A stretch of DNA of 64,000 nt. Source: Candidatus Pacearchaeota archaeon CG10_big_fil_rev_8_21_14_0_10_34_76 (GTDB taxonomy: Archaea > Nanobdellota > Nanobdellia > Pacearchaeales > GW2011-AR1). Under the pieces are notes generated by a model. That model was given only the letters and a program-made list of their open reading frames with translations, did not search any database and was not told the DNA's origin. Location of the stretch: contig PFDB01000010.1 in NCBI GenBank assembly GCA_002763075.1, forward strand, positions 6,553 to 70,552, written 5' to 3'. This document shows positions 38,047-59,046 of the stretch, one piece after another. The position numbers and the translations under genes were made by a program. Every line of letters begins with the position of its first letter. Position 1 is the first letter of the stretch.

Positions 38047-38493
38047 CTATTTCTTCAGCATCAGCAAACTTCCAAGCAAAACCAACACAACTAAAACCTG
38101 TATCTCGATACCTTGAAAAGGAAGGCTTGCAAAACTAAAAGATATTCCTATGAAAGACAATATCAAAGGAAGCAAACCAGTAATACACAATGGACAAACA
38201 CCCACAACAAGTCCTCCAATAGCTCCAACTCCAGCAACAGCACTTTCTTTTTTACACTCCTTTCTTTGCTTATATCTCATAAATGCAAGCACAGAAGTCA
38301 TAGCAACGAGAACTCCAATCATTAAAGTTAATCCCAGAGAAATCCCAAGCTTCACCCAATCAACACTTTTTGCATAAATCACAATAAGCGGAATAGTATA
38401 ATAAAACCCACTAAGGATAATATTCAAAATCAGATAAAAAATAAAAATTCCTACAACCCAGAATACATACGGCTTTCTGAACAATTCTTTCAT
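38047..38493 (-). CDS. polytopic membrane protein with an intramembrane CxxC (short paralog)
   Basis: ...GAIGGLVVGVCPLCITGLLPLILSFIGISFSFASLPFQGIEIQVL... has the same G-x-CxxC ... LPF-G-(L/I)E(I) layout as A1, A2 and A3. Confidence 0.65.
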   Translation of the reverse strand: MKELFRKPYVFWVVGIFIFYLILNIILSGFYYTIPLIVIYAKSVDWVKLGISLGLTLMIGVLVAMTSVLAFMRYKQRKECKKESAVAGVGAIGGLVVGVCPLCITGLLPLILSFIGISFSFASLPFQGIEIQVLVVLVLLGSLLMLKK

Positions 38494-38514
38494 CTTTATT
38501 TAAAATCTCACGAT

Positions 38515-39051
38515 TCATTCTTTATATATTATCTCTTGAGTTATATCAATAAATTCAAGGCATAACTTTTCTATTTTATCCAATTGCTGCTCATCCCTGA
38601 CCTTAAGATCAACTCCATAAGTATAATCCTCTCTGAGTTCAATTACACTATTTTCATGATTCATCTGCTCGTCTTCATATTTCATAAAATCTAGAATTTC
38701 TTTTTTGATATCTATTATTCCCTGCTCTTGCAGAGAGTCTATTAAAGTTATTGTGCAAGTCTGATTTTTCGATTCGTATCCAAATTTTGCTGTAATAGAC
38801 AAAAAACAGTGATATAATGAATAAAATCCTACACCCATAGCTAAATCCGAGAAATCATTCTCTCTTAAAAGTCTAAACCCTTTAAGAAAATGTCTGGCCT
38901 TATCCACGTGCTGAAATGCAAGGTTTTTGTCAGGGTTTATTTTAAGCAATCCTCTGTGACGAGGTTTTTTGTTTTGTTTTTCAGATTCATTGAGTTCCCT
39001 CTCTGCTTTTCTCAAACACCATTCAATTTTTTTAGAAACTTGTGAATCCAT
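38515..39051 (-). CDS. HEPN domain protein
   Basis: The helical pattern HVDKARHFLKGFRLLRENDFSDLAMGVGFYSLYHCFLSITAKFG is typical of HEPN. It overlaps the upstream MNT gene by 20 nt. Confidence 0.6.
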   Translation of the reverse strand: MDSQVSKKIEWCLRKAERELNESEKQNKKPRHRGLLKINPDKNLAFQHVDKARHFLKGFRLLRENDFSDLAMGVGFYSLYHCFLSITAKFGYESKNQTCTITLIDSLQEQGIIDIKKEILDFMKYEDEQMNHENSVIELREDYTYGVDLKVRDEQQLDKIEKLCLEFIDITQEIIYKE

Positions 39052-39622
39052 TCATTATCTCCATATAATTATCATAGCCACATAAAATAATTCCTGTTCT
39101 AATTATCTCCAATATTGCTTTATTATTACTTCTTAAATTTCTTATAAAATCATGTTTTGTTGATTTGATTGCATGAATCTTTTTTGGCAAAACGGCCTGT
39201 ATTTCCTCCAACTTGACATTTACTTCCTTAAATTCTCCTTCCTTAAGGATAATCATAATATCTATATCTTTGGCCTGTGCGTAATTTCTGCTGGCAGATC
39301 CATAAAATAAAATTATCCTTCCCTTTTTACATAAATTTTTGAATTCATTTCTCCATCGATCATGTTTCCCTGCCTCATTTACAAACGCAAATCCCATTAG
39401 TTTCTGTGCCAACTCGTCATATATATCGATTTTATAGATAATTGATTTTCCAATTTGTTTACTTGCCAGAAGGCCAGCTTTTTCGAGCCTTTTCAAGATT
39501 TTCATTGCACCAACCTGAGTTATTTCCAATTTTTTGCTAAGGGAATTTGCATTATAAAAATTAGTAAAATCTTTATAAATTATAATTAAAGCTTCCTGCT
39601 CTTTTCTTGTTAACTCTATCAT
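39032..39622 (-). CDS. wHTH plus minimal nucleotidyltransferase (MNT) protein
   Basis: wHTH (LSKKLEITQVGAMKILKRLEKAGLL) followed by ILFYGSASRNYAQAKDIDIMIIL (GS..DxD). Confidence 0.75.
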   Translation of the reverse strand: MIELTRKEQEALIIIYKDFTNFYNANSLSKKLEITQVGAMKILKRLEKAGLLASKQIGKSIIYKIDIYDELAQKLMGFAFVNEAGKHDRWRNEFKNLCKKGRIILFYGSASRNYAQAKDIDIMIILKEGEFKEVNVKLEEIQAVLPKKIHAIKSTKHDFIRNLRSNNKAILEIIRTGIILCGYDNYMEIMNGFTSF

Positions 39623-39696
39623 CTTAACTTAAAATTATGATATAATAACTTATAGTTAGTTTATAAACCTTTATGGTTTAAATAATGAAGAATTTA

Positions 39697-40089
39697 TCAC
39701 TTAACATTCAACTTTCCAAAACCCATTCCCATAGTGCATGAGAAAGTGTAACTTCCTTTCTTAAGTGCAGGCAATTCCAAAACATCTGATTCTGATTGAA
39801 GATATTTAGAATATTTTTTCCCATCAAAATTAAAAACAACTGACCTTAAACATCCTCTAACTGATGAATCAGCACTCAACGAAATTGGCTGTCCAGCTTT
39901 CACTTCAACATCTTCATAATTGAAACCATCCTGACTAAGAACAACTTTCTGAGTCTGACCATCCAGAGCGTTTTCACCTTCATTGATAACATTTCCAGTC
40001 ACTCCTTTGCTTCCTGCATTAACAAATACGAAACCTCCAACTAAGATAATCATTACTCCTATGCCCATTAAAATCATTGAATTTTTCAT
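39697..40089 (-). CDS. membrane-anchored cupredoxin-like protein
   Basis: N-terminal TM helix. The C-terminal GSYTFSCTMGMGFGKLNV plus upstream Cys is the Cupredoxin_1-type copper-site pattern. Confidence 0.7.
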   Translation of the reverse strand: MKNSMILMGIGVMIILVGGFVFVNAGSKGVTGNVINEGENALDGQTQKVVLSQDGFNYEDVEVKAGQPISLSADSSVRGCLRSVVFNFDGKKYSKYLQSESDVLELPALKKGSYTFSCTMGMGFGKLNVK

Positions 40090-40110: not shown

Positions 40111-40137
40111 TTTTTAAGCTCTTCGATGAGACTAGTC
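40111..40137 (-). promoter_or_regulatory. TATA plus GACTAGTC operator module (cupredoxin promoter)
   Basis: Minus sense: GACTAGTC (40130-40137) - 12 nt - TTAAAAA (40111-40117) - 21 nt - ATG(40089). Confidence 0.6.
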
Positions 40138-40167
40138 AAATAAAAAATAAAAAATAAAAAAACATGT

Positions 40168-40914
40168 TTAGGCTAGTTCAGCGTCAATGATTTGCTTAAA
40201 TACAGAGTAGGGTTGTGCTCCCGAAAGGGGCTTTCCATTGATGAAAAATCCTGGAGTGCCCTGCACACCATAACTGCTCCCATCATTAAGGTCTTTTTGC
40301 ACCTCGCTTCTAAACTTCCCAGAATCAAGACAAGTATCTATATCATATCCAACATCATTTGCCCATTTCTTCAGATCCTCATTTGTGAAACTAACTGTGC
40401 TTCTAACTGGACCAGTATTTGCATCTCCTCCATCAAGGATATTTCCTTCTTGGAAAATTTTGTCATGCATCTTGAAATATGCTTCATCACCACCTTGTTC
40501 CATCACACAATTTGCTGCTTCTGCAGCAGGTGTTGCAGCAGAATGGATGCTATCAAGAGGAAAATCTCTGTAAACAAACCTTACTTTACCTGTATCTATA
40601 TATTCTGATTTTAGTAATGGAAATGTTTCTGTCCAGAACTTTCTACAGAATGGACACTGATAATCAGAAAACTCTATTATTTCAACAGGAGCATTCTCCT
40701 CCCCTAAAACAGGATCGTCATCTGCGCTTACTTCAACTCGAGAAGGTTGAGTAGGCAAGGTTGGAGCATTATTCTCACCAGTGTTCTCCCTTAGGCCTCC
40801 ATCATTTCCTGTAAAAAAGAATATGGCTCCTATAACCAATACAGCCAAAAGCAAAAGTGTGCTATATTTCCATAATGCATCTTTTCTTATAGTTATTGTT
40901 TTTTCTTCACTCAT
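40168..40914 (-). CDS. membrane-anchored DsbA-like thiol:disulfide oxidoreductase (paralog B2)
   Basis: FSDYQCPFCRKFW active site. The N-terminus MSEEKTITIRKDALWKY matches MSEENKGTITIKKDTLWKY of B1. Confidence 0.85.
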   Translation of the reverse strand: MSEEKTITIRKDALWKYSTLLLLAVLVIGAIFFFTGNDGGLRENTGENNAPTLPTQPSRVEVSADDDPVLGEENAPVEIIEFSDYQCPFCRKFWTETFPLLKSEYIDTGKVRFVYRDFPLDSIHSAATPAAEAANCVMEQGGDEAYFKMHDKIFQEGNILDGGDANTGPVRSTVSFTNEDLKKWANDVGYDIDTCLDSGKFRSEVQKDLNDGSSYGVQGTPGFFINGKPLSGAQPYSVFKQIIDAELA

Positions 40915-41483
40915 TTTAACCTCCTTTCACTTTTGTAAAAATTAATCTCACAAGTACCTGCTGAACTCATATCCTCGCTTATTTTCATAATTGAGAAAAA
41001 GAGAATTCCTATAGCTAAAAGTGAGATCTCAAGCCCCCCAAGAGGAAGAAAGACTAAGAAAGCAGAACTCAATCCAAATAAAGATAATGATCCAACTCCG
41101 CATGCAGCGCATCCTGGAGCAATCATTCCCAAAAAAATTCCTCCAACCACAAAAACCCCTGATTTCCCAGAGGTTGTTTTTATGATTAATGTTTTATAAG
41201 TTATCAAACTAAAAAGCATACCAAATAAAACACTAATAATGAGCAAGCTCATGTAAGAGCTAAGTTTTAATGTGGCTCCAAAACCAATTACTAAACTAAA
41301 AAATAAGTTGATTGTTTTTAAAAATCCAAACTCTGGGTAAAAAGAAAAAAGAATTTTCCAGTTGCTTATCACAACATTCACTAAATAAAAAAAAACAGCC
41401 AGGGTTGTTGTTAATAATGGGTATTTCCAATTCATAAAAACTTCTTTCCATGTCTTAATTATTTTATTTATCTTCATTTTCAC
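40911..41483 (-). CDS. polytopic membrane protein with an intramembrane CxxC (paralog A2)
   Basis: ...LGMIAPGCAACGVGSLSLFGLSSAFLVFLPLGGLEISLL... plus a distal Cys (GTCEINF). 4-nt overlaps with both neighbouring genes. Confidence 0.7.
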   Translation of the reverse strand: MKMKINKIIKTWKEVFMNWKYPLLTTTLAVFFYLVNVVISNWKILFSFYPEFGFLKTINLFFSLVIGFGATLKLSSYMSLLIISVLFGMLFSLITYKTLIIKTTSGKSGVFVVGGIFLGMIAPGCAACGVGSLSLFGLSSAFLVFLPLGGLEISLLAIGILFFSIMKISEDMSSAGTCEINFYKSERRLK

Positions 41484-42112
41484 CTGGATGTGTACTCTAT
41501 TAAGATTTCATCTTTATCTTTCATGACGTAATTCTCAAATTCGTTGTTTTCAACACCATTGACATGCATCTTTAATTCTCCATTATCTGTACAGTACTCG
41601 AATATACATTTTGAACTGAATTGTTTGTCCCAAACATAAAAGAAATACCCCAAGGTGAGAGTTTCAGGCTTAGAACTTGGATTATTATTTTCTAAATGAA
41701 TAGTTCCATCTGTTTCATGAGTATGAGTTGGAGACATTCTCATTCCGCTTAAGGAAGTATCAACAATCTTGCCAACGCTCAACCCTATGTCTGTAGAGAT
41801 AGGAATTGTTTCCCCATCAACTTTGATTGTTATTCTTGGATGCCAGTGCACCGCTCCAGAAGGAATAGTGATTTCCCTGCCCCCGAGATCTACATTAAGG
41901 TCTTTCACATTTCTTTCAGGGATTAGTGCTATTACTCCAAAAATTATTAACCCAATGACTACAATAAAAATTGTCAAGTTCCTCATTTTTTTAACAGGCA
42001 ATCTTTTTTTATCCTTAGGCAAAATTTCAGAATGCTTTGCATTATTGTGCGCAATTAAACCCTCAGTGTTCTTGAATACCCTACCACAGACCCCACATGT
42101 TTTCTTCACCAT
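41480..42112 (-). CDS. C2H2 zinc finger - TM helix - His-rich ectodomain protein
   Basis: TCGVCGRVFKNTEGLIAHNNAKH (C-X2-C-X12-H-X4-H), one TM helix, then an ectodomain with HWHP and SPTHTHETDGTIH. Confidence 0.75.
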   Translation of the reverse strand: MVKKTCGVCGRVFKNTEGLIAHNNAKHSEILPKDKKRLPVKKMRNLTIFIVVIGLIIFGVIALIPERNVKDLNVDLGGREITIPSGAVHWHPRITIKVDGETIPISTDIGLSVGKIVDTSLSGMRMSPTHTHETDGTIHLENNNPSSKPETLTLGYFFYVWDKQFSSKCIFEYCTDNGELKMHVNGVENNEFENYVMKDKDEILIEYTSR

Positions 42113-42223
42113 TTTATTATATTATAATTAAAAAGCTATAATACTTTACTATCTGAACAATACCTCTTAAAATGGCTAAAAAGCTCAAATTTGGTCATTT
42201 TAACGTTCATAAGACCATTTTGA

Positions 42224-42721
42224 CTAGAATTTTAAGAATACCTCTAGGGTTTTTCCTTTCTGAATCCTTTTTACAAGCCCTCTTCTTTCAAGCTCTTGAA
42301 GAACATAACTTAATTTAGCCTTAGACATATCAGTTCTTATTCTCAATGTTGATTGTGTGATTCCAGGTTGTTCTCTTATTGCCTTCACAATTTTTTGTTC
42401 GAATGGATCAAGAGCCTTTAATAAAATAGAAAACTTCATATCTTCAATTTTTTCATCCCTCTCTTTTTCAAGTCTTTCAAGGATTGCTTTTTCAGTTTTA
42501 TTAAAAAAGAGAAGATAAAATCCAAGTGCTATTATAAAGGAAAATATCCCTATCGCTATATGTGAAACAGACAAACCCCTTTCAAGTTCAAGACATCCTG
42601 GCTGATTAAAACACCCCATCTCATTTGATTGCTCTGATAAATTCAAGGAATAATAAACAAACATCCCCCCAACAATCAATCCAATAACAATTAAAAGCAC
42701 ACCCAGTTTTTTATTTTCCAT
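42224..42721 (-). CDS. membrane-anchored wHTH regulator with an extracytoplasmic Cys pair (sensor paralog 1)
   Basis: TM1, loop NEMGCFNQPGCLE, TM2, then a cytoplasmic wHTH (ITQSTLRIRTDMSKAKLSYVLQELERRGLVKR). Confidence 0.75.
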   Translation of the reverse strand: MENKKLGVLLIVIGLIVGGMFVYYSLNLSEQSNEMGCFNQPGCLELERGLSVSHIAIGIFSFIIALGFYLLFFNKTEKAILERLEKERDEKIEDMKFSILLKALDPFEQKIVKAIREQPGITQSTLRIRTDMSKAKLSYVLQELERRGLVKRIQKGKTLEVFLKF

Positions 42722-42764: not shown

Positions 42765-43028
42765 TTATTTCATCTTATTGTATATTGTAGCAAACAGCCA
42801 TCCAACAATCCATGCCAATACTACTATCTCAACAAGTCCAATAATCCCGCTTACTATTGAAACATTTGGGTTTGTTATCTTGCTAATATCCAATCCATGG
42901 AAAAGATATCCAAATAAACTCATTGTAGCTTCTGGAATAACAATTATCAACACGACGCACACAATAAATACTATTCCTGAAACAATTGCTAGCGAATTCG
43001 CCACATTTTTTGTATTTAATTTATCCAT
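42765..43028 (-). CDS. small two-TM membrane protein
   Basis: Start set to the ATG preceded by AAAGGAGGTGAGAAA (SD, 7-nt spacer). The listed MKGGEK extension is read-through of the SD. Confidence 0.6.
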   Translation of the reverse strand: MDKLNTKNVANSLAIVSGIVFIVCVVLIIVIPEATMSLFGYLFHGLDISKITNPNVSIVSGIIGLVEIVVLAWIVGWLFATIYNKMK

Positions 43029-43060
43029 TTTCTCACCTCCTTTCATAACTAAACATCAGA

Positions 43061-43579
43061 TTACTTTAATCTTATCTTGCAAGCTCCTTCCACAGATTTC
43101 CCTGTCAGATATATAGATACCATCAAAATAAAAATTCCAAGAACCTGTATCTCTAGTCCTCTAAAAGGAAAATACATCAATGCTAAAGGCATTCCAACAA
43201 GCCCAAAGAGGAATGCTCCACATGTTGGGCATCCAACTCCAAAAGCAGCAATTCCCGAGCCAATAAATCCAACTATTCCCTTTCCTTCCATTTTTTTATA
43301 ATTCTCAAACTTAAAGAAAATCATTGACATCAAAATTCCAGATAATACAGCAGTCACTATAATACTCGCCACACTAAATGTTATAAAAGCAGTCCCAGAC
43401 ATCATCACAGATATCCAGATGCTGTTATCAGCCACCTTAGCAACTAAAAAATAATACAAAATACCAAAAATCGCAATTCCTACTAACGAAGCTATTAACT
43501 TATACTTTCTACTACTCAACACTTCCCCAACAATAACAAATGTGTTGCCACATTCATCTTTTAGATTCATCCCAAACAC
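43061..43579 (-). CDS. polytopic membrane protein with an intramembrane CxxC (paralog A3)
   Basis: ...GSGIAAFGVGCPTCGAFLFGLVGMPLALMYFPFRGLEIQVL... plus a distal Cys (GACKIRL). Confidence 0.7.
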   Translation of the reverse strand: MFGMNLKDECGNTFVIVGEVLSSRKYKLIASLVGIAIFGILYYFLVAKVADNSIWISVMMSGTAFITFSVASIIVTAVLSGILMSMIFFKFENYKKMEGKGIVGFIGSGIAAFGVGCPTCGAFLFGLVGMPLALMYFPFRGLEIQVLGIFILMVSIYLTGKSVEGACKIRLK

Positions 43580-43785
43580 TCCGCATATATATTAGGATGA
43601 TGGCTCATATGTTCTCTCCAGCTTTCTTCGGTGTATCCTGGTTGAACATTACATTTTTCATTCCCAGAACTTCCAGCATCACTAATTGCATAGATTATCC
43701 CAGGAAATAAGGTAAGCAACAATAACCCGATCGAGACAATCCCTAAAACTATGTATAATATTATTTTTTTATTCATTAATGGCAT
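43567..43785 (-). CDS. small membrane-anchored protein with a Cys/His motif
   Basis: 72 aa: TM helix followed by CNVQPGYTEESWREHMSHHPNIYAEC. Confidence 0.5.
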   Translation of the reverse strand: MPLMNKKIILYIVLGIVSIGLLLLTLFPGIIYAISDAGSSGNEKCNVQPGYTEESWREHMSHHPNIYAECLG

Positions 43786-44255
43786 TTTCCTCCTTTCAAT
43801 ACGTTATTCATTTTTCTCCTATGATTTACCATAACAATTATTCCAAGAACATTAGATAATATTCCAATAGTCAATATCTCTGACTGATATTGAGCAAGAA
43901 AAACAGCCAACCCAGATAAACCTATAATTGGAATCACATTAAGAAGAAAATGACTACAACACGCAACCATACTTCCCGCAGAAAGAGTTCCAGTTCCTGC
44001 AACAGTTGCATTCACTCCGGCACTATGCCTTATTGATGTAAAAAGCCCGACTTGTATCCCAAATCCCCCAGCAAGAGGAATGATAAAATACCACAAGCTC
44101 CTCAAACTAAAAAATGCAAAAGCAACTCCTTGGAAAATGCTTATAACGCCTAAGTAAAATAGAACAAGTCCAATTCCTGCTAACAATCCATACAAAATTG
44201 CATTACTTTTTCTACTATTTTTTACATATCTCATGTTATTCCATACAGCATTCAA
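43776..44255 (-). CDS. polytopic membrane protein with a vicinal CC (divergent member of the CxxC family)
   Basis: ...GTLSAGSMVACCSHFLLNVIPIIGLSGLAVFLAQYQSEIL... is colinear with the CxxC..GLSG..LP..E segment of A1-A3. Confidence 0.6.
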   Translation of the reverse strand: MNAVWNNMRYVKNSRKSNAILYGLLAGIGLVLFYLGVISIFQGVAFAFFSLRSLWYFIIPLAGGFGIQVGLFTSIRHSAGVNATVAGTGTLSAGSMVACCSHFLLNVIPIIGLSGLAVFLAQYQSEILTIGILSNVLGIIVMVNHRRKMNNVLKGGKCH

Positions 44256-44727
44256 GAAGTTTTTTTACAGATGCAAAAACACTCTTTTTTTCATTGCTAC
44301 TTCCCATATTTATTTTCCCTGATTTCTTAAGATTAGAATCAATGTTCAATTTCCAAAACATTCCATACAGCTCTGCAGAATCTTTATACATTTCATCTGC
44401 CTCTTTCTCCTTTCCATCATGCAAAAGTCTGTTTCCTGTTTCAAATAATCTCATACTACTTGCCAGAAAGTGCTTGCTCATGCACCATTTCTCTCCTCCA
44501 TCATCATCTCTCACAATCAACTTCAAAAGTTTCTTTCTCAACTCTCTTACATTTTCAAGCATCTCAAGATATTTTTTGTCTTCTGTCTTCACATAACTAA
44601 AGAAACAATGCTCTTCCAAGGAGACAAGATTCATTATTCCAATAGAAAGATCTTCCCATGCAGATATATCTAACTCTTTCTTTCCCTTCACTTCTTCAAT
44701 CTTTTTCACAAAGTTATCAATTTTCAT
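44236..44727 (-). CDS. cytoplasmic helical protein with a Cys-rich C-terminus
   Basis: 163 aa with no TM helix. Cys at EEHCFF and KWCMSKH, and a terminal LLECCME. Confidence 0.55.
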   Translation of the reverse strand: MKIDNFVKKIEEVKGKKELDISAWEDLSIGIMNLVSLEEHCFFSYVKTEDKKYLEMLENVRELRKKLLKLIVRDDDGGEKWCMSKHFLASSMRLFETGNRLLHDGKEKEADEMYKDSAELYGMFWKLNIDSNLKKSGKINMGSSNEKKSVFASVKKLLECCME

Positions 44728-44728
44728 A

Positions 44729-45265
44729 TTATATTATTACAAACTGGATTAATAATGAGGAGATTATAAGCAACGCAAATGTCACAATAAGTCCTTGGAA
44801 TGGAATTCCTTTTCCATTTCTCTTTTCTTTTATCTTCCTACTCAATGAAGGAGAGACAAATACTATTACTCCTCCAAATAAACTACTTATCAAAGAGTAG
44901 TCAATAGCATAAGTTATTCCATATTCTCCTAAGAATGGTAAATACAATGGCCCTAAAGCACTAAATATTGGCATCAATGGCAATACAGTAAGAACAAACA
45001 CGCCCACAATTATCAACGTCTTCTGAAATGGAATATATCTTTTTTTTACAATTCTAGCAAACCACATCCCCATAGACATAGCAAAAGCCCCGATGAAAAG
45101 TGCTACGATTACCTTGCTGACTCCAAGCCAAACAGCTCCTGCAGCAGCAGCCCCTGCTCCAATAGTGCAAAGAGGACAATGCGCATATACACTTTCGGCC
45201 AGCATCAGAATAAATACAGGCATAGCAAACAGCCAAACCATCCACTTGTTGAATATTTTTTTCAT
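44729..45265 (-). CDS. polytopic membrane protein with an N-terminal HCPLC motif
   Basis: Signal-like helix, then AHCPLCTIGAGAAAAGAVWLG and four further TM helices. First gene of a seven-gene minus-strand operon. Confidence 0.65.
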   Translation of the reverse strand: MKKIFNKWMVWLFAMPVFILMLAESVYAHCPLCTIGAGAAAAGAVWLGVSKVIVALFIGAFAMSMGMWFARIVKKRYIPFQKTLIIVGVFVLTVLPLMPIFSALGPLYLPFLGEYGITYAIDYSLISSLFGGVIVFVSPSLSRKIKEKRNGKGIPFQGLIVTFALLIISSLLIQFVII

Positions 45266-45286
45266 GCTTACTCAAGTAAGATATTT

Positions 45287-45313
45287 ATTATAAGAGCTTT
45301 TGCGCGACTAGTC
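45287..45313 (-). promoter_or_regulatory. TATA plus GACTAGTC operator module (promoter of the 45265-42224 operon)
   Basis: Minus sense: GACTAGTC (45306-45313, within near-palindrome GCGCGACTAGTCACGC) - 12 nt - TTATAAT (45287-45293) - 21 nt - ATG(45265). 45289-45313 is an exact 25-nt copy of 47765-47789. Confidence 0.7.
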
Positions 45314-45337
45314 ACGCATCACATTCCCCAATGAAAA

Positions 45338-46257: not shown

Positions 46258-46740
46258 TTAAATCCTCATCCACTCTCTAAAAGTCCCGTCGTTTTGAACA
46301 GCATATATAACGAAATCTCCTGATTTTGTTCCAGGCATTCCAGGGCTTCCATTCGGCATTCCAGGCATTGCAATTCCCTTTATGTCAGGTTTTTCTGTAA
46401 GAAGTTTCTCTACAGCTTCTAAAGGTATATGTCCCTCAATAAAATAATTTCCAATTATCGTTGTATGACAACTTTCCATTTGCGAAGGTATCTCATATTT
46501 TGCCTTTAAGGTTGAAAGACTTTCAAGATTGACAACTTCCACATCAGAGTTCCCCTTTCTTTGGAAATAATTAACAAAGACTCCACAACATCCACAGCTC
46601 CCCGTCTTGTATATTGTCATCTCGCCATCATATTCGCCTAACGAAGGATATCCGCTTGCTTTATTACTTCCAAATACAATAAACAAAGCAACCACTATTA
46701 TGATTACTCCTACTCCAACTATTATTGTTTTCTTTTTCAT
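46258..46740 (-). CDS. DUF411 (CopG-like) metal-binding protein, membrane-anchored
   Basis: SCGCCGVFVNYF, ESCHTT and IEGHIP motifs, with a Met/Pro-rich GMPNGSPGMPG segment. Confidence 0.75.
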   Translation of the reverse strand: MKKKTIIVGVGVIIIVVALFIVFGSNKASGYPSLGEYDGEMTIYKTGSCGCCGVFVNYFQRKGNSDVEVVNLESLSTLKAKYEIPSQMESCHTTIIGNYFIEGHIPLEAVEKLLTEKPDIKGIAMPGMPNGSPGMPGTKSGDFVIYAVQNDGTFREWMRI

Positions 46741-46747
46741 ATTTTAA

Positions 46748-46984
46748 TTAGCATCCTCCGACCATTGTAGATGCAGCACTCTGAGCAGCACTTCCTGTGC
46801 TTTGTGCAACACCAACAGAGCCTCCTATTCCTGCTTGGAATGTCATGAATAAAGCTATCAAAAACAATGCTCCAATCACAATCCACAAAACTATTCTTTT
46901 ATCCATTTTGATTATAAATCCTCCTTTCATTTTGTTTTCCCCTTCAGAGTTTTCTGAATTTGAAATATTACTGCAACAATCCAT
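46748..46984 (-). CDS. small membrane-anchored peptide ending in MVGGC
   Basis: Start uncertain: ATG at 46906 (MDKRIV..., 52 aa) or the ATG inside ATGAAAGGAGG. One TM helix; the last 20 nt of coding sequence plus stop are identical to 47055-47074. Confidence 0.5.
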   Translation of the reverse strand: MDCCSNISNSENSEGENKMKGGFIIKMDKRIVLWIVIGALFLIALFMTFQAGIGGSVGVAQSTGSAAQSAASTMVGGC

Positions 46985-47054
46985 TATTTTTCCTCCTTAA
47001 AGGATGGATAAAAGGAAAGGAATGCTAAGTCATAAAAAAATAAAAATTTACTCA

Positions 47055-47741
47055 TTAGCATCCTCCGACCATTGCTCCTCCAGAAGAGCTTTGTCCTTTC
47101 TCTATCCCTCTGTATAGATTAGATGCAAGATTGATATAATCAGTGCTATCTATTCCATTAGCTTCTAACACTTGTGCTTTCTGCTCATGAATCCCTGGGA
47201 AGAATAGAACTTTCCACTTCCCTAATTCCCTAAGTATATCTGCATCGCTCATTTCAGGATTGTTTATCAAAAGATACTTTGCAAGACCCCTCATTGCATA
47301 GCTATGTGCACATCCACAAGCCCTCTCCCCATTTGAGAAGATAATTGATTCAGCACCACAACAATACTCACAAGAGATTGATCCTGCAATCATTATATAT
47401 CTCTCAAGTTGTTCAGCATTCAACTGCAAGTCTTCGTATTCAGAAAGCTTTGCAATTGTAGCATCCGCAAGCCTTGGATTATTTGGAGATACATCATCGT
47501 AGCTAATCCCCATACTTGCTCCATATACTGCAGGGATTCCCTCAGGTATTATTTCTGAAGCAGAAACTGTCCCAACACCTGTAGCAAGTCCTGTAGGCCC
47601 AATAGATGAATAAACCTTTCCTGTATTAAATACAATTACTAATGCAAGAATAGCTATTATTCCTATTTGGACATAAAGCTCTGTCTTTCCGGAGCTGGTC
47701 GATCCTCCTTTCATTTCATTCTCACTTTCGTGTTTTTCCAT
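47055..47741 (-). CDS. membrane-anchored Cys-rich protein ending in MVGGC
   Basis: TM helix, then an ectodomain with SCEYCCGAESIIFSNGERACGCAHSYAMRGL and C-terminal GGAMVGGC. Confidence 0.65.
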   Translation of the reverse strand: MEKHESENEMKGGSTSSGKTELYVQIGIIAILALVIVFNTGKVYSSIGPTGLATGVGTVSASEIIPEGIPAVYGASMGISYDDVSPNNPRLADATIAKLSEYEDLQLNAEQLERYIMIAGSISCEYCCGAESIIFSNGERACGCAHSYAMRGLAKYLLINNPEMSDADILRELGKWKVLFFPGIHEQKAQVLEANGIDSTDYINLASNLYRGIEKGQSSSGGAMVGGC

Positions 47742-47762
47742 GCAATCTCTAGAATAAAAAAT

Positions 47763-47789
47763 TATATAAGAGCTTTTGCGCGACTAGTC
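47763..47789 (-). promoter_or_regulatory. TATA plus GACTAGTC operator module (promoter of the 47741-46258 operon)
   Basis: Minus sense: GACTAGTC (47782-47789) - 12 nt - TTATATA (47763-47769) - 21 nt - ATG(47741). Confidence 0.7.
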
Positions 47790-47870
47790 TCATAACTATT
47801 TCCCGAGGATAAAAATAATTTAGAGATTCATTACATATATCTTTAAAAATAAAAAATCAATCTTTTCTCT

Positions 47871-49825: not shown

Positions 49826-50314
49826 TTAAGAATTTTTTAGGACAACAACATTAGTCATTCCCCTGCGTTTTCTCTCAACTAAATTTCTGCCCTCAAGCCT
49901 GTCAACTATTCTAGAAACTTTCTGCTTGCTCATTCCTGTTTTTTCAATTAAATCAGCCTGGAATATCGTTCCTCCAGATTCCTGTATCATCTTAAAGACC
50001 TTTTTGTCCTCTACCTTCAAATCAGATAAGTCAATTTTCTTTGGTTTTATCTTTTCAGGAACTTTTCTTATAATTACTCTTTCCTCGGGCTTAGTAAATA
50101 TCAATATAATTCCAATAATCACAAGTATTCCCACTATTGCCAACGCCAAAAAAGTCTGTTGAGTTATTGAATCATACATAGGACAACTCAGAGCGTGCTC
50201 TCCAGTACACGAACTTTTAACTATCTCCCTTAAGGTAGAATTAAAGAGCAAGATAATTACTATTATGACTAAAGAAATTCCTATTATTAACATGCCAACA
50301 TGTTTATTTTCCAT
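49826..50314 (-). CDS. membrane-anchored wHTH regulator with an extracytoplasmic Cys pair (sensor paralog 2)
   Basis: TM1, loop KSSCTGEHALSCPMYD, TM2, then the wHTH IFQADLIEKTGMSKQKVSRIVDRLEGRNLVERKRRGMTNVVVLK. Confidence 0.8.
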   Translation of the reverse strand: MENKHVGMLIIGISLVIIVIILLFNSTLREIVKSSCTGEHALSCPMYDSITQQTFLALAIVGILVIIGIILIFTKPEERVIIRKVPEKIKPKKIDLSDLKVEDKKVFKMIQESGGTIFQADLIEKTGMSKQKVSRIVDRLEGRNLVERKRRGMTNVVVLKNS

Positions 50315-50335
50315 ATAATAGAGAAAAAAACATCC

Positions 50336-50367
50336 TTTTTAATAGTATTGGATGAATGAAACTAGTC
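50336..50367 (-). promoter_or_regulatory. TATA plus GACTAGTT operator module (sensor paralog 2 promoter)
   Basis: Minus sense: GACTAGTT (50360-50367) - 17 nt - TTAAAAA (50336-50342) - 21 nt - ATG(50314). Confidence 0.5.
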
Positions 50368-50916
50368 CTTTTCACAGATCTTCTCAAGTTTAGAAAGAGC
50401 TCCACTCTCTAATTTCTTCTTTTCATCATGAATTTTCTGTAATATGCCCTGATAACCAATCTGCCAATCTTCTACTTGTCTCCATGTTAATGGCTCCCAA
50501 ATTTCTCTAGTTTGGTCAAAAACAAAAACCTGGTCCACCTTTCTAAAATCTCTTTCGCCTTCGTTATTTGCAATAAGTTTAATGTCAATGTCATCATCAA
50601 TAAGTATTTCCAACCTATATTGCGGAATTACTTTCTTAGATTCAGACAAGAAACCTTTTTCAGTTTCAATTCTTTGAGTATAATAATTTGAAATAACTAT
50701 TTTCTTATCACCATCAGAAAAATATTCTCTGCTCTCATTTACCGGAGGAGTTGCATAATTCCAAACACTAGTAAGTCTCTTTTCTTCCTTTTTACGCTCA
50801 TTATTATTATGCAAGGCAGATGCTCCAATCCATAAAATACCCAATAACGCCATTGCACCAATCGTCCATTCTATTTTACTACCTTTCTCTGTGTGATACT
50901 GTTCATTTTCAGCCAT
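50362..50916 (-). CDS. membrane-anchored hypothetical protein (last gene of the SPFH operon)
   Basis: 184 aa with an N-terminal TM helix. The C-terminal EIWEPLTWRQVEDWQIGY resembles the G(K/S)WE motif of the two small upstream proteins. Confidence 0.55.
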   Translation of the reverse strand: MAENEQYHTEKGSKIEWTIGAMALLGILWIGASALHNNNERKKEEKRLTSVWNYATPPVNESREYFSDGDKKIVISNYYTQRIETEKGFLSESKKVIPQYRLEILIDDDIDIKLIANNEGERDFRKVDQVFVFDQTREIWEPLTWRQVEDWQIGYQGILQKIHDEKKKLESGALSKLEKICEKD

Positions 50917-54310: not shown

Positions 54311-54550
54311 ATGGAAAATATCACAACAATACAACTAAGAGAAAGCGTCAAAAAAATGCTCGAGCAATTGAAACAAAAAAAGAATGAGACTTATGAAGAC
54401 GTAATTGTGAAACTCATAGATGAAATAGGGGGAGAAAGGAAACGGGTTGAACAACTAATGATTGAAGGTTATAAAGAAATGGCTGAAGAAAGCTTAAAAA
54501 TAACCAAAGAGTTTGAAGCTATTGAAGATTTCAAAGATTGGGAATGGTAA
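54311..54550 (+). CDS. antitoxin candidate (partner of MazF)
   Basis: 79 aa. The N-terminal ITTIQLRESVKKMLEQLK is a beta-strand/helix typical of RHH-type antitoxins. It overlaps the toxin gene by 13 nt. Confidence 0.55.
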   Translation: MENITTIQLRESVKKMLEQLKQKKNETYEDVIVKLIDEIGGERKRVEQLMIEGYKEMAEESLKITKEFEAIEDFKDWEW

Positions 54551-54891
54551 ATATAAAAAAAGGTGACATAATTATCGCTGATTTGGAGCCAGTGAAAGGT
54601 CATGAACAAGGAGGAATAAGGCCTTGCCTTATTATTCAGAATGATTTAGGAAATAAATTCAGTCCAACAACAATAATTTCTGCAATAACTTCCAAAAGAT
54701 TTCTTAAAAAATACCCTACAAACATTGAAATATCCAAAAATGAATCCAAACTTGAAAAAGATTCTACTGTTATGCTAAATCAAATAAGAACAATAGACAA
54801 ATCAAGAATAATAAAGGTGGTCTCTTCTCTGGACAAAGAGACTATGAAAGGAGTTGACCTTGCTCTTAAAAGAAGTCTTGAATTGAATTAA
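54538..54891 (+). CDS. mazF: MazF/PemK family endoribonuclease toxin
   Basis: GDIIIADLEPVKGHEQGGIRPCLIIQND ... TTIISAITSK is the PemK signature. Confidence 0.85.
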   Translation: MGMVNIKKGDIIIADLEPVKGHEQGGIRPCLIIQNDLGNKFSPTTIISAITSKRFLKKYPTNIEISKNESKLEKDSTVMLNQIRTIDKSRIIKVVSSLDKETMKGVDLALKRSLELN

Positions 54892-55056: not shown

Positions 55057-56064
55057 ATGCCAAAAAGAATACCTGAAGAAACAAGAGAAGAAATTAAGAG
55101 ATTATACGATAGTGGGAATGGAATATCTCCAGCAGAAATAGCCAGGCAAACAGGAGTTTCGTATGGTTCTGTTTATGGAATGACAAGAGCAAGACAAAGA
55201 ATTAATCCAGAGACAGGTAAGACATTTGCTTCTCAAACAGAATATGGAGATTATCTAACAAGACAAAGAATTAATCCAGAAACAGACAAGCCATTTGCCT
55301 CTAGAGGAGAATATTTAGAGTTTAGAACAAGACAAAGAATTAATCCAGAGACAGATAAGCCATTTGCCTCTAGAGGAGAATATTTAGAGTTTAGAGCAAG
55401 ACAAAGGATTAATCCAGAGACAGATAAGCCATTTGCTTCTGAAAAAGAATATGAAGATTATCTAGTAAGACAAAAAGTTAATCCAGAGACAGGTAAGACA
55501 TTTGCTTCTCAAACAGAATATGGAGATTATCTAACAAGACAAAGAATTAATCCAGAAACAGACAAGCCATTTGCCTCTAGAGGAGAATATTTAGAGTTTA
55601 GAGTAAGACAAAAAGTTAATCCAGAGACAGGAGAACATTTCAAGTCTTTAAGTGAAAGACAAGGTTATCTAGCAAGACAAAGGATTAATCCAGAGACAGA
55701 TAAGCCATTTGCTTCTCAAAAAGAATATTTAGAGTTTAGAGCAAGACAAAGGATTAATCCAGAAACAGACAAGCCATTTGCTTCTCAAGGAGAATATGAA
55801 GGTTATAGTGCAAGACAAAGAAGTCAAAAAGTAAGAAACAGAGAATTAGGTGATTTTATAAGAAGAAGATTAAAATGGATTGGTCTAAATCAAAGTTGGT
55901 TAGCTGAAGAAATAGGTGTTTCTAGACAAGCGGTTAACTTATATGTCGCCGGTAAATCTACTCCGAGGGGTGAAAATTTAAGAAGATTATTATCTGCTCT
56001 GGATATTAAGGAATCAACTAATCTGCCAAAAAGTTTAGAAGATTTAATTGAGGAAAGATTATAA
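55057..56064 (+). CDS. dual-HTH protein with nine tandem 23-aa repeats
   Basis: N-terminal HTH (ISPAEIARQTGVSYGSVYGM), 9 x RQRINPETDKPFASxxEYxxFxx, and a C-terminal XRE-type HTH (LNQSWLAEEIGVSRQAVNLYVAG). Confidence 0.8.
   Translation: MPKRIPEETREEIKRLYDSGNGISPAEIARQTGVSYGSVYGMTRARQRINPETGKTFASQTEYGDYLTRQRINPETDKPFASRGEYLEFRTRQRINPETDKPFASRGEYLEFRARQRINPETDKPFASEKEYEDYLVRQKVNPETGKTFASQTEYGDYLTRQRINPETDKPFASRGEYLEFRVRQKVNPETGEHFKSLSERQGYLARQRINPETDKPFASQKEYLEFRARQRINPETDKPFASQGEYEGYSARQRSQKVRNRELGDFIRRRLKWIGLNQSWLAEEIGVSRQAVNLYVAGKSTPRGENLRRLLSALDIKESTNLPKSLEDLIEERL
55192..55812 (+). repeat. nine in-frame tandem 69-bp repeats
   Basis: Repeat units start at 55192 + 69n. Units 1-2 (55192-55329) and 5-6 (55468-55605) differ at only 4 positions, a higher-order 138-bp duplication. 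Confidence 0.9.
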
Positions 56065-56128: not shown

Positions 56129-56812
56129 TTATCCAAAAACACCACTTCTAGGTCCGAATACCATAAACCAAGCGGTAACAACTGTAAGCACGAATGTCAA
56201 GAAAATAGTCCAGAAATGATCTTCCTTCTTCTTTCTTGTCTCAGAGCGCATTTCTTTGAATATCATATAATTCAATGAGAATAATATAATTGCAGAGATT
56301 AAGAAAACAATCACTGCGCTTGGTATTAAATTATCATTAAACAACATAAAAGCAGTCATAGCCCCCATAAGTCCTCCCATAAAGCCAGCCATCATTCCTT
56401 CCATGAACCCCATCACACCACAGCACTTTCCATTCCATATCCCAAGTACAATTCCAACCCCCATTCCAAAAACGCTTCCAACAAACATACCATTAGTTGA
56501 AGCTACAAAAAATCCAGCCAAAAACCCAGCAATCATTCCTGTTGTCATTCCAACCATCATCCCCGACATACATGGCATTTCCCCATAAGCCCTAACTTGT
56601 CTTATAGCAGGAACAAGGAAAGCATAGCTCAATGCAGCAAAAAACATAAAGAATCCTTGCTTAGACATGAAATCTGGTATTTCGCTAAATCTAAAGAAGT
56701 ACAATATTCCCAAAATAATGAAGGATGTCAGCAATGAATAGAAAATTGTCTTGATTAACTCTCCCTCTACTCTATCCCCATGTTTCACTTCTTTCAAAAA
56801 TTCCCTAAACAT
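56129..56812 (-). CDS. polytopic Gly/Met-rich membrane protein with a CC motif
   Basis: GEMPCMSGMMVGMTTGMIAGF ... WNGKCCGVMGFMEGMMAGFMGGLMGAM across six or seven TM helices. Confidence 0.6.
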   Translation of the reverse strand: MFREFLKEVKHGDRVEGELIKTIFYSLLTSFIILGILYFFRFSEIPDFMSKQGFFMFFAALSYAFLVPAIRQVRAYGEMPCMSGMMVGMTTGMIAGFLAGFFVASTNGMFVGSVFGMGVGIVLGIWNGKCCGVMGFMEGMMAGFMGGLMGAMTAFMLFNDNLIPSAVIVFLISAIILFSLNYMIFKEMRSETRKKKEDHFWTIFLTFVLTVVTAWFMVFGPRSGVFG

Positions 56813-56859
56813 GTTTTCTCCTTGTTTTTTTAATATTTAAGTTCTTTGGTGAATCAAAA

Positions 56860-58074
56860 TCATTTTGCAATCTTGGAAATTTCATCAACTGCCCTAATGA
56901 ATTTCATTGCATCTTCTTCAGTATTATAAAAATAAAATGAGGCCCTAACACTTCCATTAATATTGTGTTTGTTAAACCATCCATGAACACAATGAGCTCC
57001 ACCTCTTACCATAATCCCATACCCTGAATCAAGTATTTTAGCAACTTCATGAGGAGTCATTCCTTTAATATTGAAATTAAAAATTCCATTTCTCAACACT
57101 GAATCGGCAGGTCCTATAATCTCTACTTTTTTATTATCCTTCAACCCATCCGTGATTATTTTATTTAGATTATGCTCATGTTTCCCAATGTTTTTCATCC
57201 CAATCTTCCTCAAATATCTGCATGCTTCTCCAAAACCAATTATTCCAGAATAATTCTGCAATCCTGCCTCAAATCTATGGGGAATATCTTCAGGAACAAA
57301 ATCCTCAAAACTAGAATCTTTTATTGTTTCTCCTCCAACAATAAACATCTTGAGTTTCTCAAGCTCCGAAAACTTGCCGTATAATGCTCCTGTCCCAGAA
57401 GGTCCACACATTTTATGTCCAGAAAAAGCAAGAAAATCGCAATCAATTTTCCCAACATCAATCTCTATGTGCGGAACACTCTGACAAGCATCTATCATAA
57501 CCTTGACTCCTTTTTCATGAGAGAATTTTGCTATTTCATTAATAGGATTTTCAACCCCATCAAGATTACTTATATGTACAATAGAAACAAATTTTGTTTT
57601 TTCATTAAAACAATTTTTAAAATTCTTCATGTTAAAAGTATTATCCAAATTTGATTCGCAAACTACAACTTTTATTCCATTTTCCTCTGCAAGTTTAATC
57701 CAGGGAATTAGATTAGAACTGTGTTCTTTATCTGTGATTATAACCTCATCTCCCTTTTTCCAACTCAATCCACTGATAACTAGGTTTATTGCTTCAGTAG
57801 CATTTCTTGTAAATACAATTTCCTTTTCCTTAGCAGAAATAAATCTAGCAATTTCTCTCCTAGCACTAGAAATTTCTTCATCTAATCTCCTTCCAAATTT
57901 ATGAGAACTTCTTCCAGCACACGCAGTGTAATAATAATAATATTCATTCATTTTATCAATTACACATTTTGGCTTTAGAGAGATGCATGCAGAATCAAGA
58001 TATATGGTCTTAGGATTATTTTCAAGAATAGGAAAATCTTTCTTTATTTTTTCAGCATTAAAACCAAAGATCAT
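56860..58074 (-). CDS. cysteine desulfurase (class V aminotransferase, SufS/CsdA-like)
   Basis: PLP-lysine motif FSGHKMCGPSGTGALYG and catalytic-Cys segment VRGGAHCVHGW. Confidence 0.85.
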   Translation of the reverse strand: MIFGFNAEKIKKDFPILENNPKTIYLDSACISLKPKCVIDKMNEYYYYYTACAGRSSHKFGRRLDEEISSARREIARFISAKEKEIVFTRNATEAINLVISGLSWKKGDEVIITDKEHSSNLIPWIKLAEENGIKVVVCESNLDNTFNMKNFKNCFNEKTKFVSIVHISNLDGVENPINEIAKFSHEKGVKVMIDACQSVPHIEIDVGKIDCDFLAFSGHKMCGPSGTGALYGKFSELEKLKMFIVGGETIKDSSFEDFVPEDIPHRFEAGLQNYSGIIGFGEACRYLRKIGMKNIGKHEHNLNKIITDGLKDNKKVEIIGPADSVLRNGIFNFNIKGMTPHEVAKILDSGYGIMVRGGAHCVHGWFNKHNINGSVRASFYFYNTEEDAMKFIRAVDEISKIAK

Positions 58075-58487
58075 GATACTCCCTCAGAATAATTAGAAAT
58101 TTTGTCTTCCCCAGAATTTGACTTCAACCCGTTTTCCACACTACTTATCACACAAAACCCATTAGAATTTTCACCATTGCAATTTCTATACATAACATAA
58201 TTATATATTCCTACAGCAGAAAAATAGAAAGAAAGAATAGTTATGATAAGAATTACCATTATAATAATTTTATAATTTCTGTAAAATCCCCTTCCTAAGA
58301 CTGGAGAGATTTTCATAAGCCTTCCAGTTATATCGCTTTTAATTCTCTCATCAAATCCGCTTCTGCACTTCCTAAATGTCACATTTCTGAATAAGCAATC
58401 AAAACTTTCAACAGCAAGTTTTCTATATCTGACACTAAATATTCCCATGACAGCCAAAAATGGCAATGCAATCCAACATAATACCAT
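58071..58487 (-). CDS. membrane protein with conserved Cys pairs
   Basis: 138 aa with two TM helices. Cys in FDCLFRNVTFRKC and NCNGENSNGFC. ATGA overlap with the desulfurase gene. Confidence 0.5.
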   Translation of the reverse strand: MVLCWIALPFLAVMGIFSVRYRKLAVESFDCLFRNVTFRKCRSGFDERIKSDITGRLMKISPVLGRGFYRNYKIIIMVILIITILSFYFSAVGIYNYVMYRNCNGENSNGFCVISSVENGLKSNSGEDKISNYSEGVS

Positions 58488-58508: not shown

Positions 58509-58538
58509 TATATAACCACTTTTGTGAAACTAGTTTCA
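58509..58538. promoter_or_regulatory. divergent promoter with a perfect 14-bp palindrome operator
   Basis: TGAAACTAGTTTCA (58525-58538). Minus sense: AACTAGTT - 12 nt - TTATATA (58509-58515) - 21 nt - ATG(58487). On the plus side, the palindrome lies 34 nt before ATG 58573 of sensor paralog 3. Confidence 0.7.
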
Positions 58539-58572: not shown

Positions 58573-59046
58573 ATGGATAACAAATATGTGGGTTATATAC
58601 TCCTTGGAGTTTCCGCATTGATTATTCTATACATATTTATATTTCAATCAATGATAAATGAGATTGATGAAGGTAGCTGTTCAATTGAAACCTGCCCATA
58701 TCATGCATCATTTAACAAACTTTTATACTTGTCTCTTAGCATTGTTGGAATATTAATAATCGTAGGATTGGTCTTAGTATTATCAAAACCTAAAGAAAGA
58801 ATAGTAATTAAAAAAATTATGCAAAGACCTCATAAAATAAAGCTAGATACCTCATTTCTAAAACCCGAAGAAAAACACGTCCTGAATATAGTATTGGAGA
58901 ACAAAGCAATATTCCAGGCTGATTTGATTGAGAAAACAGGATTCGGAAAGGCCAAAATTACTCGCATTCTAGACAGGCTTGAAGGTCACAATTTTATAGA
59001 GAGAAAACGCAGAGGCATGACAAATGTTGTTGTTCTGAAACAATAA
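58573..59046 (+). CDS. membrane-anchored wHTH regulator with an extracytoplasmic Cys pair (sensor paralog 3)
   Basis: TM1, loop DEGSCSIETCPYHAS, TM2, then the wHTH IFQADLIEKTGFGKAKITRILDRLEGHNFIERKRRGMTNVVVLK. Confidence 0.8.
   Translation: MDNKYVGYILLGVSALIILYIFIFQSMINEIDEGSCSIETCPYHASFNKLLYLSLSIVGILIIVGLVLVLSKPKERIVIKKIMQRPHKIKLDTSFLKPEEKHVLNIVLENKAIFQADLIEKTGFGKAKITRILDRLEGHNFIERKRRGMTNVVVLKQ

Follow-up and report, generated by a model that had tools for sequence, protein, structure and literature searches.

What do small membrane proteins that carry their own DNA-binding domain sense outside the cell, and which promoters do they address? The question is raised by three genes, P1, P2 and P3, in a stretch of 64,000 nucleotides (hereafter the window; G+C ~34%) on contig PFDB01000010.1 of Candidatus Pacearchaeota archaeon CG10_big_fil_rev_8_21_14_0_10_34_76. 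Each encodes two transmembrane (TM) segments, an outer loop with two cysteines and a C-terminal winged helix-turn-helix (wHTH) domain. An initial annotation had read the products as three equivalent transmembrane one-component redox/metal sensors, each gene being linked to an ACTAGT-type operator. The architecture, the Cys pair, the topology and a copper/thiol context bear this out, the equivalence of the three proteins does not, and the interpretation was largely right in kind, with a mechanism that is putative. The explanation that we consider best, and hold with moderate confidence, is that P1–P3 are membrane-integrated one-component transcription factors (TFs) and that the P2/P3 type controls a copper (cop) regulon through the palindromes TGAAACTAGTTTCA and GACTAGTC in response to a copper signal.

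All three proteins match DUF7343 (PF24034) above its gathering score of 27.6 bits (P1, 34.9; P2, 51.1; P3, 33.8), an annotation that homologues of P2 and P1 also bear in precomputed form. MarR-type families likewise score above threshold in the C-terminal ~60 residues of P1, P2 and P3, both for MarR (28.4, 29.2 and 30.4 bits, respectively; threshold 24.6) and for MarR_2 (29.7, 39.4 and 27.9 bits; threshold 27). A scan against NCBIfam gave wHTH matches below threshold only. ArsR/SmtB membership is not indicated, NF033788 scoring 22.4 and 19.1 bits against a cut-off of 55 and HTH_5 being absent from the Pfam matches; Trans_reg_C was not among these matches either, and Pfam and NCBIfam scans at E ≤ 1 disclosed no TRASH, CsoR or MerR domain. 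P2 and P3 are 51% identical and P1 shares 22–32% identity with them, dividing the three, on sequence comparison, into two orthogroups, type A (P2, P3) and a separate P1-type. The wHTH consensus originally drawn for all three fits P2 and P3 and not P1, which also differs in having its own promoter, a rigid helical linker and a downstream DsbA module, and in lacking an adjacent ACTAGT operator. P2 itself is a 100% match to hypothetical protein COU60_02595 of a Candidatus Pacearchaeota metagenome-assembled genome. Protein searches returned 1025 homologues of P2 and 695 of P1, a profile search of 1.84 billion 50%-identity representatives gave 629 matches at E ≤ 1e-10, and a scan of species-level genomes confirmed at least 572 relatives; the family is widespread across DPANN archaea (Pace-, Woese- and Nanoarchaeota).

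The common plan of TM1, two-Cys external loop, TM2, linker and C-terminal winged helix was confirmed by open reading frames (ORFs), Pfam, hydropathy, which gives two TM segments per protein, and AlphaFold2 (AF2) models. The model of P2, built with 57 homologues (predicted local distance difference test score, pLDDT, 84.7), comprises a helical hairpin (helices 3–35 and 45–73) with C36 and C44 in its tip loop (residues 36–44), a basic linker (74–100) predicted to be disordered, and a winged helix (101–159) that closes the protein. The P1 model (pLDDT 83.4) repeats this hairpin, again with both Cys at the tip (loop 36–40), and its TM2 runs on as one helix to residue 103, followed by the wHTH. In Foldseek searches the wHTH core superposes on MexR/MarR at 1.1–2.5 Å over 64–74 alignment columns, with MexR, MarR and HsmR as top matches. 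PDB sequence and Foldseek matches (MexR, MarR, HosA) span this core only, about 65–70 residues, and neither search matched the full architecture in the PDB. The N- and C-terminal dimerization helices of MarR-type proteins are not present in the AF2 models: the chain stops after the wing strands (residues 159/162 and 163/165), and the region ahead of the wHTH is occupied by the TM hairpin and linker instead of the MarR N-terminal dimerization helix. The outside segment, about 20–28 residues long, is net acidic across the family (0.5 K/R versus 2.2 D/E), and the 25 residues after TM2 hold 8.4 K/R in type A. Because the loop is acidic, the stretch after TM2 is basic and a DNA-binding domain must be cytoplasmic, the predicted topology is N-in/C-in with the loop outside the cell, where the initial annotation had placed it.

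Operator statistics were compiled from 80 loci (764 kb in total) of species-level DPANN genomes, picked by the presence of the TF gene, with expectations from Markov simulations. The palindromic 14-mer TGAAACTAGTTTCA occurs there 52 times exactly and 69 times with at most one mismatch, versus 0.35 expected, and is tightly tied to type-A genes: it lies within 150 nt upstream of 37 of the 79 such genes, mostly 34–46 nt from the ATG, and the modal gap to the ATG of non-TF targets is 37–38 nt. The promoter consensus reads TGAAACTAGTTTCA-CAAAAGCGC-TTTTATA, in which the palindrome abuts the presumed TFB-recognition element (BRE) and TATA box ~22–28 nt before the ATG. Thirteen further sites with the same promoter layout were found in a second locus set, metagenome loci retrieved through P1-type proteins (70 loci for neighborhood counts). 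In the window the exact palindrome has a single occurrence, in the bidirectional promoter of P3. The operator claimed for each gene is thus present beside P3 and, in hybrid form, beside P2, and is missing beside P1, whose nearest site, CGTGACTAGTCGCG at 45303..45316, heads a co-directional string 2.6 kb upstream. The bare ACTAGT hexamer was rejected as an operator signature, since its 13 occurrences in the window against 10.2 expected represent no enrichment and the extended palindromes alone are meaningful.

Copper genes dominate behind these sites. Among the 80 loci, the genes adjoining a site encode the TF itself (39), a Met-rich 227-aa protein (38), CEYCCG-motif proteins (13), cupredoxins (4) and HMA proteins (3), and the Met-rich, CEYCCG and cupredoxin families all have homologues in the window (Table 1); ArsR-like genes are never first beside a site. 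Two operons recur, one running from the Met-rich protein through Cupredoxin_1, a small Met/Gly peptide and a CopZ-like HMA chaperone to a P-type ATPase (CopA), the other from two to three CEYCCG genes through DUF411, HCPLC, c15/c18 and PCYCGC to ACCSH. Co-directional operon walks from 69 sites reached a cupredoxin in 39 cases, an HMA protein in 15 and CopA in 12. The motifs CPC, NX6YNX4P and PX6MX2SSX5[NS], which we take to be the Cu+ P1B-1 signature in these ATPases, are present in 28 of 31 neighboring P-type ATPases. The loci further encode 30 GMxCxxC proteins, mostly CopZ-sized HMA chaperones, Pfam families of the neighborhoods include Cupredoxin_1, DsbB, DUF302, PCYCGC, ArsR HTH_5, DsbA and DUF411, and contig L081 carries a multicopper oxidase. 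Because of these operons, ATPase motifs, HMA proteins, cupredoxins and Dsb neighbors, the genomic context is one of copper resistance and extracytoplasmic thiol chemistry. With the operator preceding copA/copZ-type genes, the signal of P2 and P3 is likely narrowed from redox/metal to copper; the copper response of the regulon and copper binding by the regulator are putative, read from gene content. The 227-aa family, seen in the window and in 48 related loci, has no Pfam assignment and keeps the motifs CM(S/T)GMM and GKCCG(I/V)MGFMEG; no other family stands first in operator-headed cop operons as constantly, and it is a candidate copper-handling membrane protein.

A second form of the operator is found in the window. 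Three promoters of regulon families carry GACTAGTC in place of AACTAGTT, each exactly 37 nt from the ATG and with the same TATA spacing, and the P2 promoter carries a hybrid site that overlaps the stop codon of the ORF at 50362..50916. The first residues of the P2 recognition helix are SKQK, against GKAK or something close to it in the rest of the family, and this Gln for Ala is shared only by P2, P0002 and P0011 among all fetched sequences; a search with the P2 wHTH fragment for more such proteins returned short fragments only and no new SKQK. Elsewhere among the fetched loci, a promoter-placed GACTAGTC was found only in L081, the contig of P0002, where TGGGACTAGTCGCA lies 37 nt before a CEYCCG-type gene and no canonical site occurs. 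The remaining GACTAGTC occurrences have no promoter layout, and the two that were translated (L055, L084) fall inside genes. As the P0011 contig is too short, the informative SKQK contigs are the window and L081, and in both of them an Ala-to-Gln exchange in the helix goes together with a symmetric change of the operator from AAC to GAC, a co-variation that supports this protein family reading the palindrome. P2 thus probably recognizes the GAC form GACTAGTC and not TGAAACTAGTTTCA, and P3, with GKAK, the canonical site. Operator binding by type-A proteins is putative and is argued from position, co-conservation and this one co-variation in two contigs. P1 was rejected as the GACTAGTC binder because P1-type genes sit in many loci with canonical sites only. 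Two of the variant promoters (45285..45316 and 47760..47792), 2.5 kb apart, share an identical 25-nt sequence, GACTAGTCGCGCAAAAGCTCTTATA, that spans operator, BRE and TATA, which suggests recent duplication or strong joint constraint.

The loop that would feed this output is defined by its cysteines. The pair is kept in 120 of the 120 best P2 homologues, in 78 of the 79 type-A genes of the genome loci and in 193 of 194 pooled, non-identical type-A sequences; 119 of 120 P1-type homologues hold an invariant C-x5-C within the motif G-C-F-x4-C. At least two loop Cys are found in 134 of 136 full-length two-TM 50%-identity representatives, the remaining loop being hypervariable. The alignments thus agree, with very few exceptions, with the claim that the pair is always present, and correct its spacing from x4–x6 to x5 (P1), x7 (P2) and x4 (P3). 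In type A the motif expands to C-x3-H-x(2-5)-C-P-M, with His between the Cys in 180/194 sequences (93%), Met at +2 from the second Cys in 177/194 (91%) and CPM in 145. Additional paralogue clades of the same architecture (L007 6204..6698, L042 8693, L055 1147, L079 1055) have loops with four Cys (ENCIEFCKLQKDSSCSLESC) or different spacings, pointing to repeated loop diversification in the family.

We propose a protein with both termini in the cytoplasm, whose helical TM hairpin would carry the short loop about 10 residues beyond the outer membrane face. The Cys2/His/Met ligand set of the type-A loop would bind extracytoplasmic Cu(I) or be oxidized in a copper-dependent way, and either a Cu(I) ion shared by Cys/His/Met residues from two loops or a disulfide whose formation copper promotes would be the trigger. 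Two hairpins would then pair in a ligand-dependent way and place two wHTHs on the 14-bp palindrome beside the BRE; because the wHTH lacks the MarR dimerization helices and the P2 linker is predicted to be disordered, hairpin pairing is the simplest and the most likely coupling. At these often bidirectional promoters the factor would regulate its own gene as well as the cop regulon, and would most likely do so by aiding TFB/TBP recruitment. The sign of regulation, activation or repression, is putative, and archaeal activators take up a position beside the BRE more typically than repressors do. P3 would serve the canonical site at 58525, and P2, switched to GACTAGTC, the sites heading the promoters at 40127, 45303 and 47779. 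DNA binding, copper as the signal and dimerization are all putative elements of this scheme.

The strongest competing account, which we nevertheless regard as unlikely, treats the Cys pair as a redox sensor, a substrate of the co-encoded DsbA/DsbB-like machinery that reports oxidative-folding or thiol stress aggravated by copper. DsbA, DsbB and several CxxC membrane proteins are indeed conserved neighbors, a GCxxCG-membrane-protein/DsbA module is directly headed by P1-type genes at 33–34 of the 70 metagenome loci, and in the AF2 models the geometry at the tip of the antiparallel helical hairpin, where both Cys lie, would plausibly allow a disulfide; moreover, the two Cys alone, and not His or Met, are invariant in distant representatives. 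A plain disulfide switch, however, leaves unexplained why the type-A His and Met are conserved nearly like the Cys, and the operons behind the operator feature chiefly CopA, CopZ and cupredoxin, not Dsb genes. In P1 the redox mode may be the primary one; in P2 and P3 it would be an alternative.

Quite unlikely, in our estimation, is that the Cys pair acts as a structural staple and that control is exerted by a partner membrane protein (such as the Met-rich 227-aa protein), by a membrane property or by proteolytic release of the wHTH. Extracytoplasmic Cys pairs are usually structural, the long, basic and predicted-disordered P2 linker suits a tether or cleavage site better than a signal wire, and no divergent partner is as constant as the Met-rich 227-aa gene; yet no conserved protease was found in the neighborhood, type A keeps its Cys/His/Cys/Met set in an otherwise hypervariable loop, and the context is metal-specific. 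That another regulator, for example of ArsR type (HTH genes in 21 of the 80 loci and in the window), binds the palindrome, the membrane proteins then belonging to the regulon and employing their wHTH otherwise, profits from the putative status of binding by the membrane proteins and is very improbable, given the autoregulatory position of the site at 37/79 type-A genes and never directly beside an ArsR-like gene, the coincidence of Ala to Gln with AAC to GAC in both informative contigs, and the variant site of L081, a contig with no called gene matching HTH_5 in 10.8 kb.

Several points weigh against the copper-responsive reading that we prefer. Metal binding or redox change at the loop is putative, being read from the residues present, and a hairpin-tip Cys pair 4–9 residues apart on the outer side could be a simple structural disulfide. 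The P3 loop is atypical (C-x4-C-P-Y-H), with neither the internal His nor the Met, and among distant representatives the two Cys alone are constant, for which reasons the ligand may differ between clades. The disordered 27-residue linker in the P2 model argues against direct conformational coupling. The ArsR-type protein, encoded at 21/80 loci and in the window, could sense metal in the cytoplasm and address part of the same gene set. Since the loci were chosen by the TF gene, co-occurrence of TF and site is not independent evidence, and only adjacency and spacing count. The SKQK/GACTAGTC co-variation comes from two contigs, possibly of shared ancestry. Finally, the transcripts are apparently leaderless because of the BRE/TATA position ~22–28 nt before the ATG, and the BRE assignment is likewise deduced from spacing.

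A bolder version of the copper-responsive reading, tentative and somewhat doubtful, would make the family the master copper regulator of Pace-, Woese- and Nanoarchaeota, in which Cu(I) held between two Cys/His/Cys/Met tips dimerizes the protein and recruits TFB/TBP. It would then be the first extracytoplasmic-sensing, membrane-integrated metal regulator to be described in archaea, and a second, orthogonal regulator/operator pair would have arisen within a single genome through the one-residue helix change from Ala to Gln and the matching operator change from AAC to GAC.

P1 belongs to a tight orthogroup of 165-residue proteins (54–78% identity); it has the invariant G-C37-F-x4-C43, and its recognition helix is MSKAKLSYVLQELE. 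P1-type promoters have their own TATA element, GTTATAAG, and no conserved palindrome or shared inverted repeat was found upstream of P1-type genes. In about half of the 70 loci the gene is followed by (DUF302), a GCxxCG membrane protein, DsbA (CPFC), a C2H2 zinc-finger TM protein (C2H2-ZnF-TM) and a cupredoxin, and the corresponding arrangement in the window runs from 42721 down to 39697. A thiol-disulfide signal is favored for P1 because of this DsbA context, and P1 more likely reports extracytoplasmic thiol-disulfide status; the continuous TM2–linker helix of its model could transmit a conformational change directly. TTTCTGCAGAAA, enriched in P1 loci, was considered as a second operator and rejected, as it codes for the DsbA active site CPFCRK.

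Beyond the P1 stop codon lies a conserved intergenic element that extends from TTTGCCTTTATGAACGgTctAAAGCCCAAATTTGGGCTTTTTAGcc to ATCGTTCAgACCCTAA, with an inverted TGAACG...CGTTCA around a central AAAGCCCAAATTTGGGCTTT-type palindrome with a T-run. It ends at the next TATA box, which is followed ~22 nt later by an apparently leaderless ATG. The element is also present in fourteen other loci (L083, L089, L093, L102, L103, L105, L108, L112, L127, L130, L141, L143, L150 and L162); three related loci searched against Rfam gave no match, the window copy not having been searched. It may serve P1 as an array of operators, or may combine a terminator with an upstream site. Between the CopA and DsbB genes, the intergenic stretch 34195..34240 contains ACTAGT followed by a near-palindrome, ATGAACCTAGTTCAT, which resembles the TGAAC half-sites of this element.

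Placed among known systems, the family would join the membrane-bound one-component regulators. ToxR, TcpP and CadC similarly tether a wHTH covalently to the membrane and join it to an extracytoplasmic sensing part in one polypeptide, sensing being putative here. They differ in having an N-terminal OmpR/PhoB-type wHTH, a single TM segment and a folded C-terminal periplasmic domain, whereas P1–P3 combine a C-terminal MarR/DUF7343 wHTH with a two-TM hairpin, a loop of about 20–28 residues and archaeal TBP/TFB promoters. Periplasmic Cys pairs modulate the activity of CadC and ToxR, and dimerization-driven DNA binding is the accepted model for ToxR-like regulators. MarR-family proteins (MexR, MarR, HosA) share the wHTH core structure and the Pfam MarR/MarR_2 matches; they are soluble, ~140–160 residues long and equipped with dimerization helices, whereas P1–P3 are membrane-integrated with a putative sensor outside. 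E. coli MarR responds to copper and oxidation via Cys, and the Foldseek matches include MarR structures in oxidized and in reduced form. CopR/CopT (HTH plus TRASH), CsoR, CueR and CopY resemble the family in their output, predicted here to be copA/copZ-type genes, but are soluble and sense cytoplasmic Cu(I). CusS, CopS and PcoS place two TM helices around an extracytoplasmic copper-sensing segment with a copper-resistance output; these are histidine kinases with phosphorelay to a response regulator, whereas P1–P3 unite a putative sensor and the DNA-binding domain in one 160-residue chain.

Within archaea the nearest parallel is ArnR, whose TM helices are C-terminal and in which we know of no conserved extracytoplasmic Cys pair. 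ArnR and ArnR1 of Sulfolobus acidocaldarius are archaeal membrane-bound transcription factors (PMC6396743, cited in PMC13286277), and ArnR has an N-terminal HTH (PMC13286277). They resemble P1–P3 as archaeal one-component membrane-anchored regulators that act at promoters, and differ in their reversed domain order and in addressing archaellum/pili genes with no metal context; no sequence relationship between P1–P3 and ArnR/ArnR1 was detected. The Pfam entry PF24034 describes a domain of unknown function and is silent on a TM hairpin, Cys pair, operator or regulon. No paper mentioning DUF7343 was found in the literature searched, and targeted literature searches found no description of this regulator family. 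Most DPANN archaea are uncultured, and to our knowledge hardly any experimental work has addressed how they regulate their genes.

For relatives in at least 572 species-level genomes, the analysis supplies a defined regulator/operator pair (with putative binding), a regulon and a ligand hypothesis, and flags several uncharacterized Cys-/Met-rich membrane protein families as probable copper handlers. If the proposal is true, very small cells would sense the outside without phosphorelay, and a third architecture would join the short list of membrane-bound transcription factors. P2 and P3 would offer a natural example of specificity re-wiring between paralogues, and the family a minimal, potentially engineerable sensor-to-DNA module.

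Table 1. Regulators, operators and neighboring genes in the window, with coordinates of the 64,000-nt stretch.
Feature	Position	Strand	Details
P1, P1-type membrane-anchored wHTH regulator	42224..42721	-	165 aa; ORF, Pfam, AF2
P2, type-A membrane-anchored wHTH regulator	49826..50314	-	162 aa; ORF, Pfam, AF2
P2 helical TM hairpin, residues 3-73	50096..50308	-	AF2
P2 tip-loop codon C36	50207..50209	-	codon mapping
P2 tip-loop codon H40	50195..50197	-	codon mapping
P2 tip-loop codon C44	50183..50185	-	codon mapping
P2 tip-loop codon M46	50177..50179	-	codon mapping
P2 winged helix, residues 101-159	49838..50014	-	AF2; recognition helix starts SKQK
P3, type-A paralogue	58573..59046	+	157 aa; ORF, Pfam; GKAK recognition helix; loop C36-x4-C41-P-Y-H
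Canonical operator TGAAACTAGTTTCA, bidirectional promoter	58525..58538	.	34 nt from P3 ATG, 37 nt from ATG of 58071..58487(-)
Variant operator TTTGACTAGTCTCA	40127..40140	-	37 nt upstream of cupredoxin ATG (39697..40089)
Variant operator CGTGACTAGTCGCG	45303..45316	-	37 nt upstream of HCPLC ATG (44729..45265)
Variant operator TGAGACTAGTCGCG	47779..47792	-	37 nt upstream of CEYCCG ATG (47055..47741)
Hybrid operator AAGGACTAGTTTCA	50357..50370	-	42 nt upstream of P2 ATG; left half GAC-type, right half canonical
Conserved intergenic element	42149..42214	-	~77 nt in family; directly after P1 stop codon, directly upstream of next promoter
Genes following the element	40168..42112	-
C2H2-ZnF-TM	41480..42112	-
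GCxxCG membrane protein	40911..41483	-
DsbA	40168..40914	-
Divergent target string	56129..58487	-	ORFs, Pfam, site-adjacent homologues
Cys-containing membrane protein	58071..58487	-	first gene, divergent from P3
SufS-like cysteine desulfurase	56860..58074	-	in divergent string
227-aa Met/Gly/Cys-rich membrane protein	56129..56812	-	commonest operator-adjacent family elsewhere, 38 site-adjacent homologues
Target string	46258..47741	-	gene order recurs behind canonical sites in other genomes
CEYCCG-motif protein	47055..47741	-
CEYCCG-motif protein	46748..46984	-
DUF411/CopG-like	46258..46740	-
String of Cys-motif membrane proteins	42765..45265	-
HCPLC	44729..45265	-
c15	44236..44727	-
ACCSH-motif	43776..44255	-
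ACCSH-motif	43567..43785	-
GCxxCG	43061..43579	-
DUF5676	42765..43046	-
Co-directional genes after cupredoxin gene	33633..40089	-	co-directional in sequence; co-transcription only presumed
Cupredoxin	39697..40089	-
ArsR-type HTH	37609..38031	-
Rhodanese	37015..37350	-
CopA-type P1B ATPase	34248..36332	-	His/Met-rich N-terminus
DsbB	33633..34184	-

The CopA-type ATPase of the window has no MxCxxC motif; in many related loci, CopZ-like HMA proteins are encoded by genes of their own. Between the two parts of the copper island is a type II toxin-antitoxin pair (54311..54891, + strand), in which the antitoxin is VapB/DUF7557-like and the toxin is of MazF/PemK type. A 335-aa protein (55057..56064, + strand) contains about nine tandem ~27-residue repeats (RQRINPETDKPFASxxEYxEFR...), flanked by an N-terminal HTH-like segment and a C-terminal HTH_3, and appears to be an unusual repeat-containing regulator.

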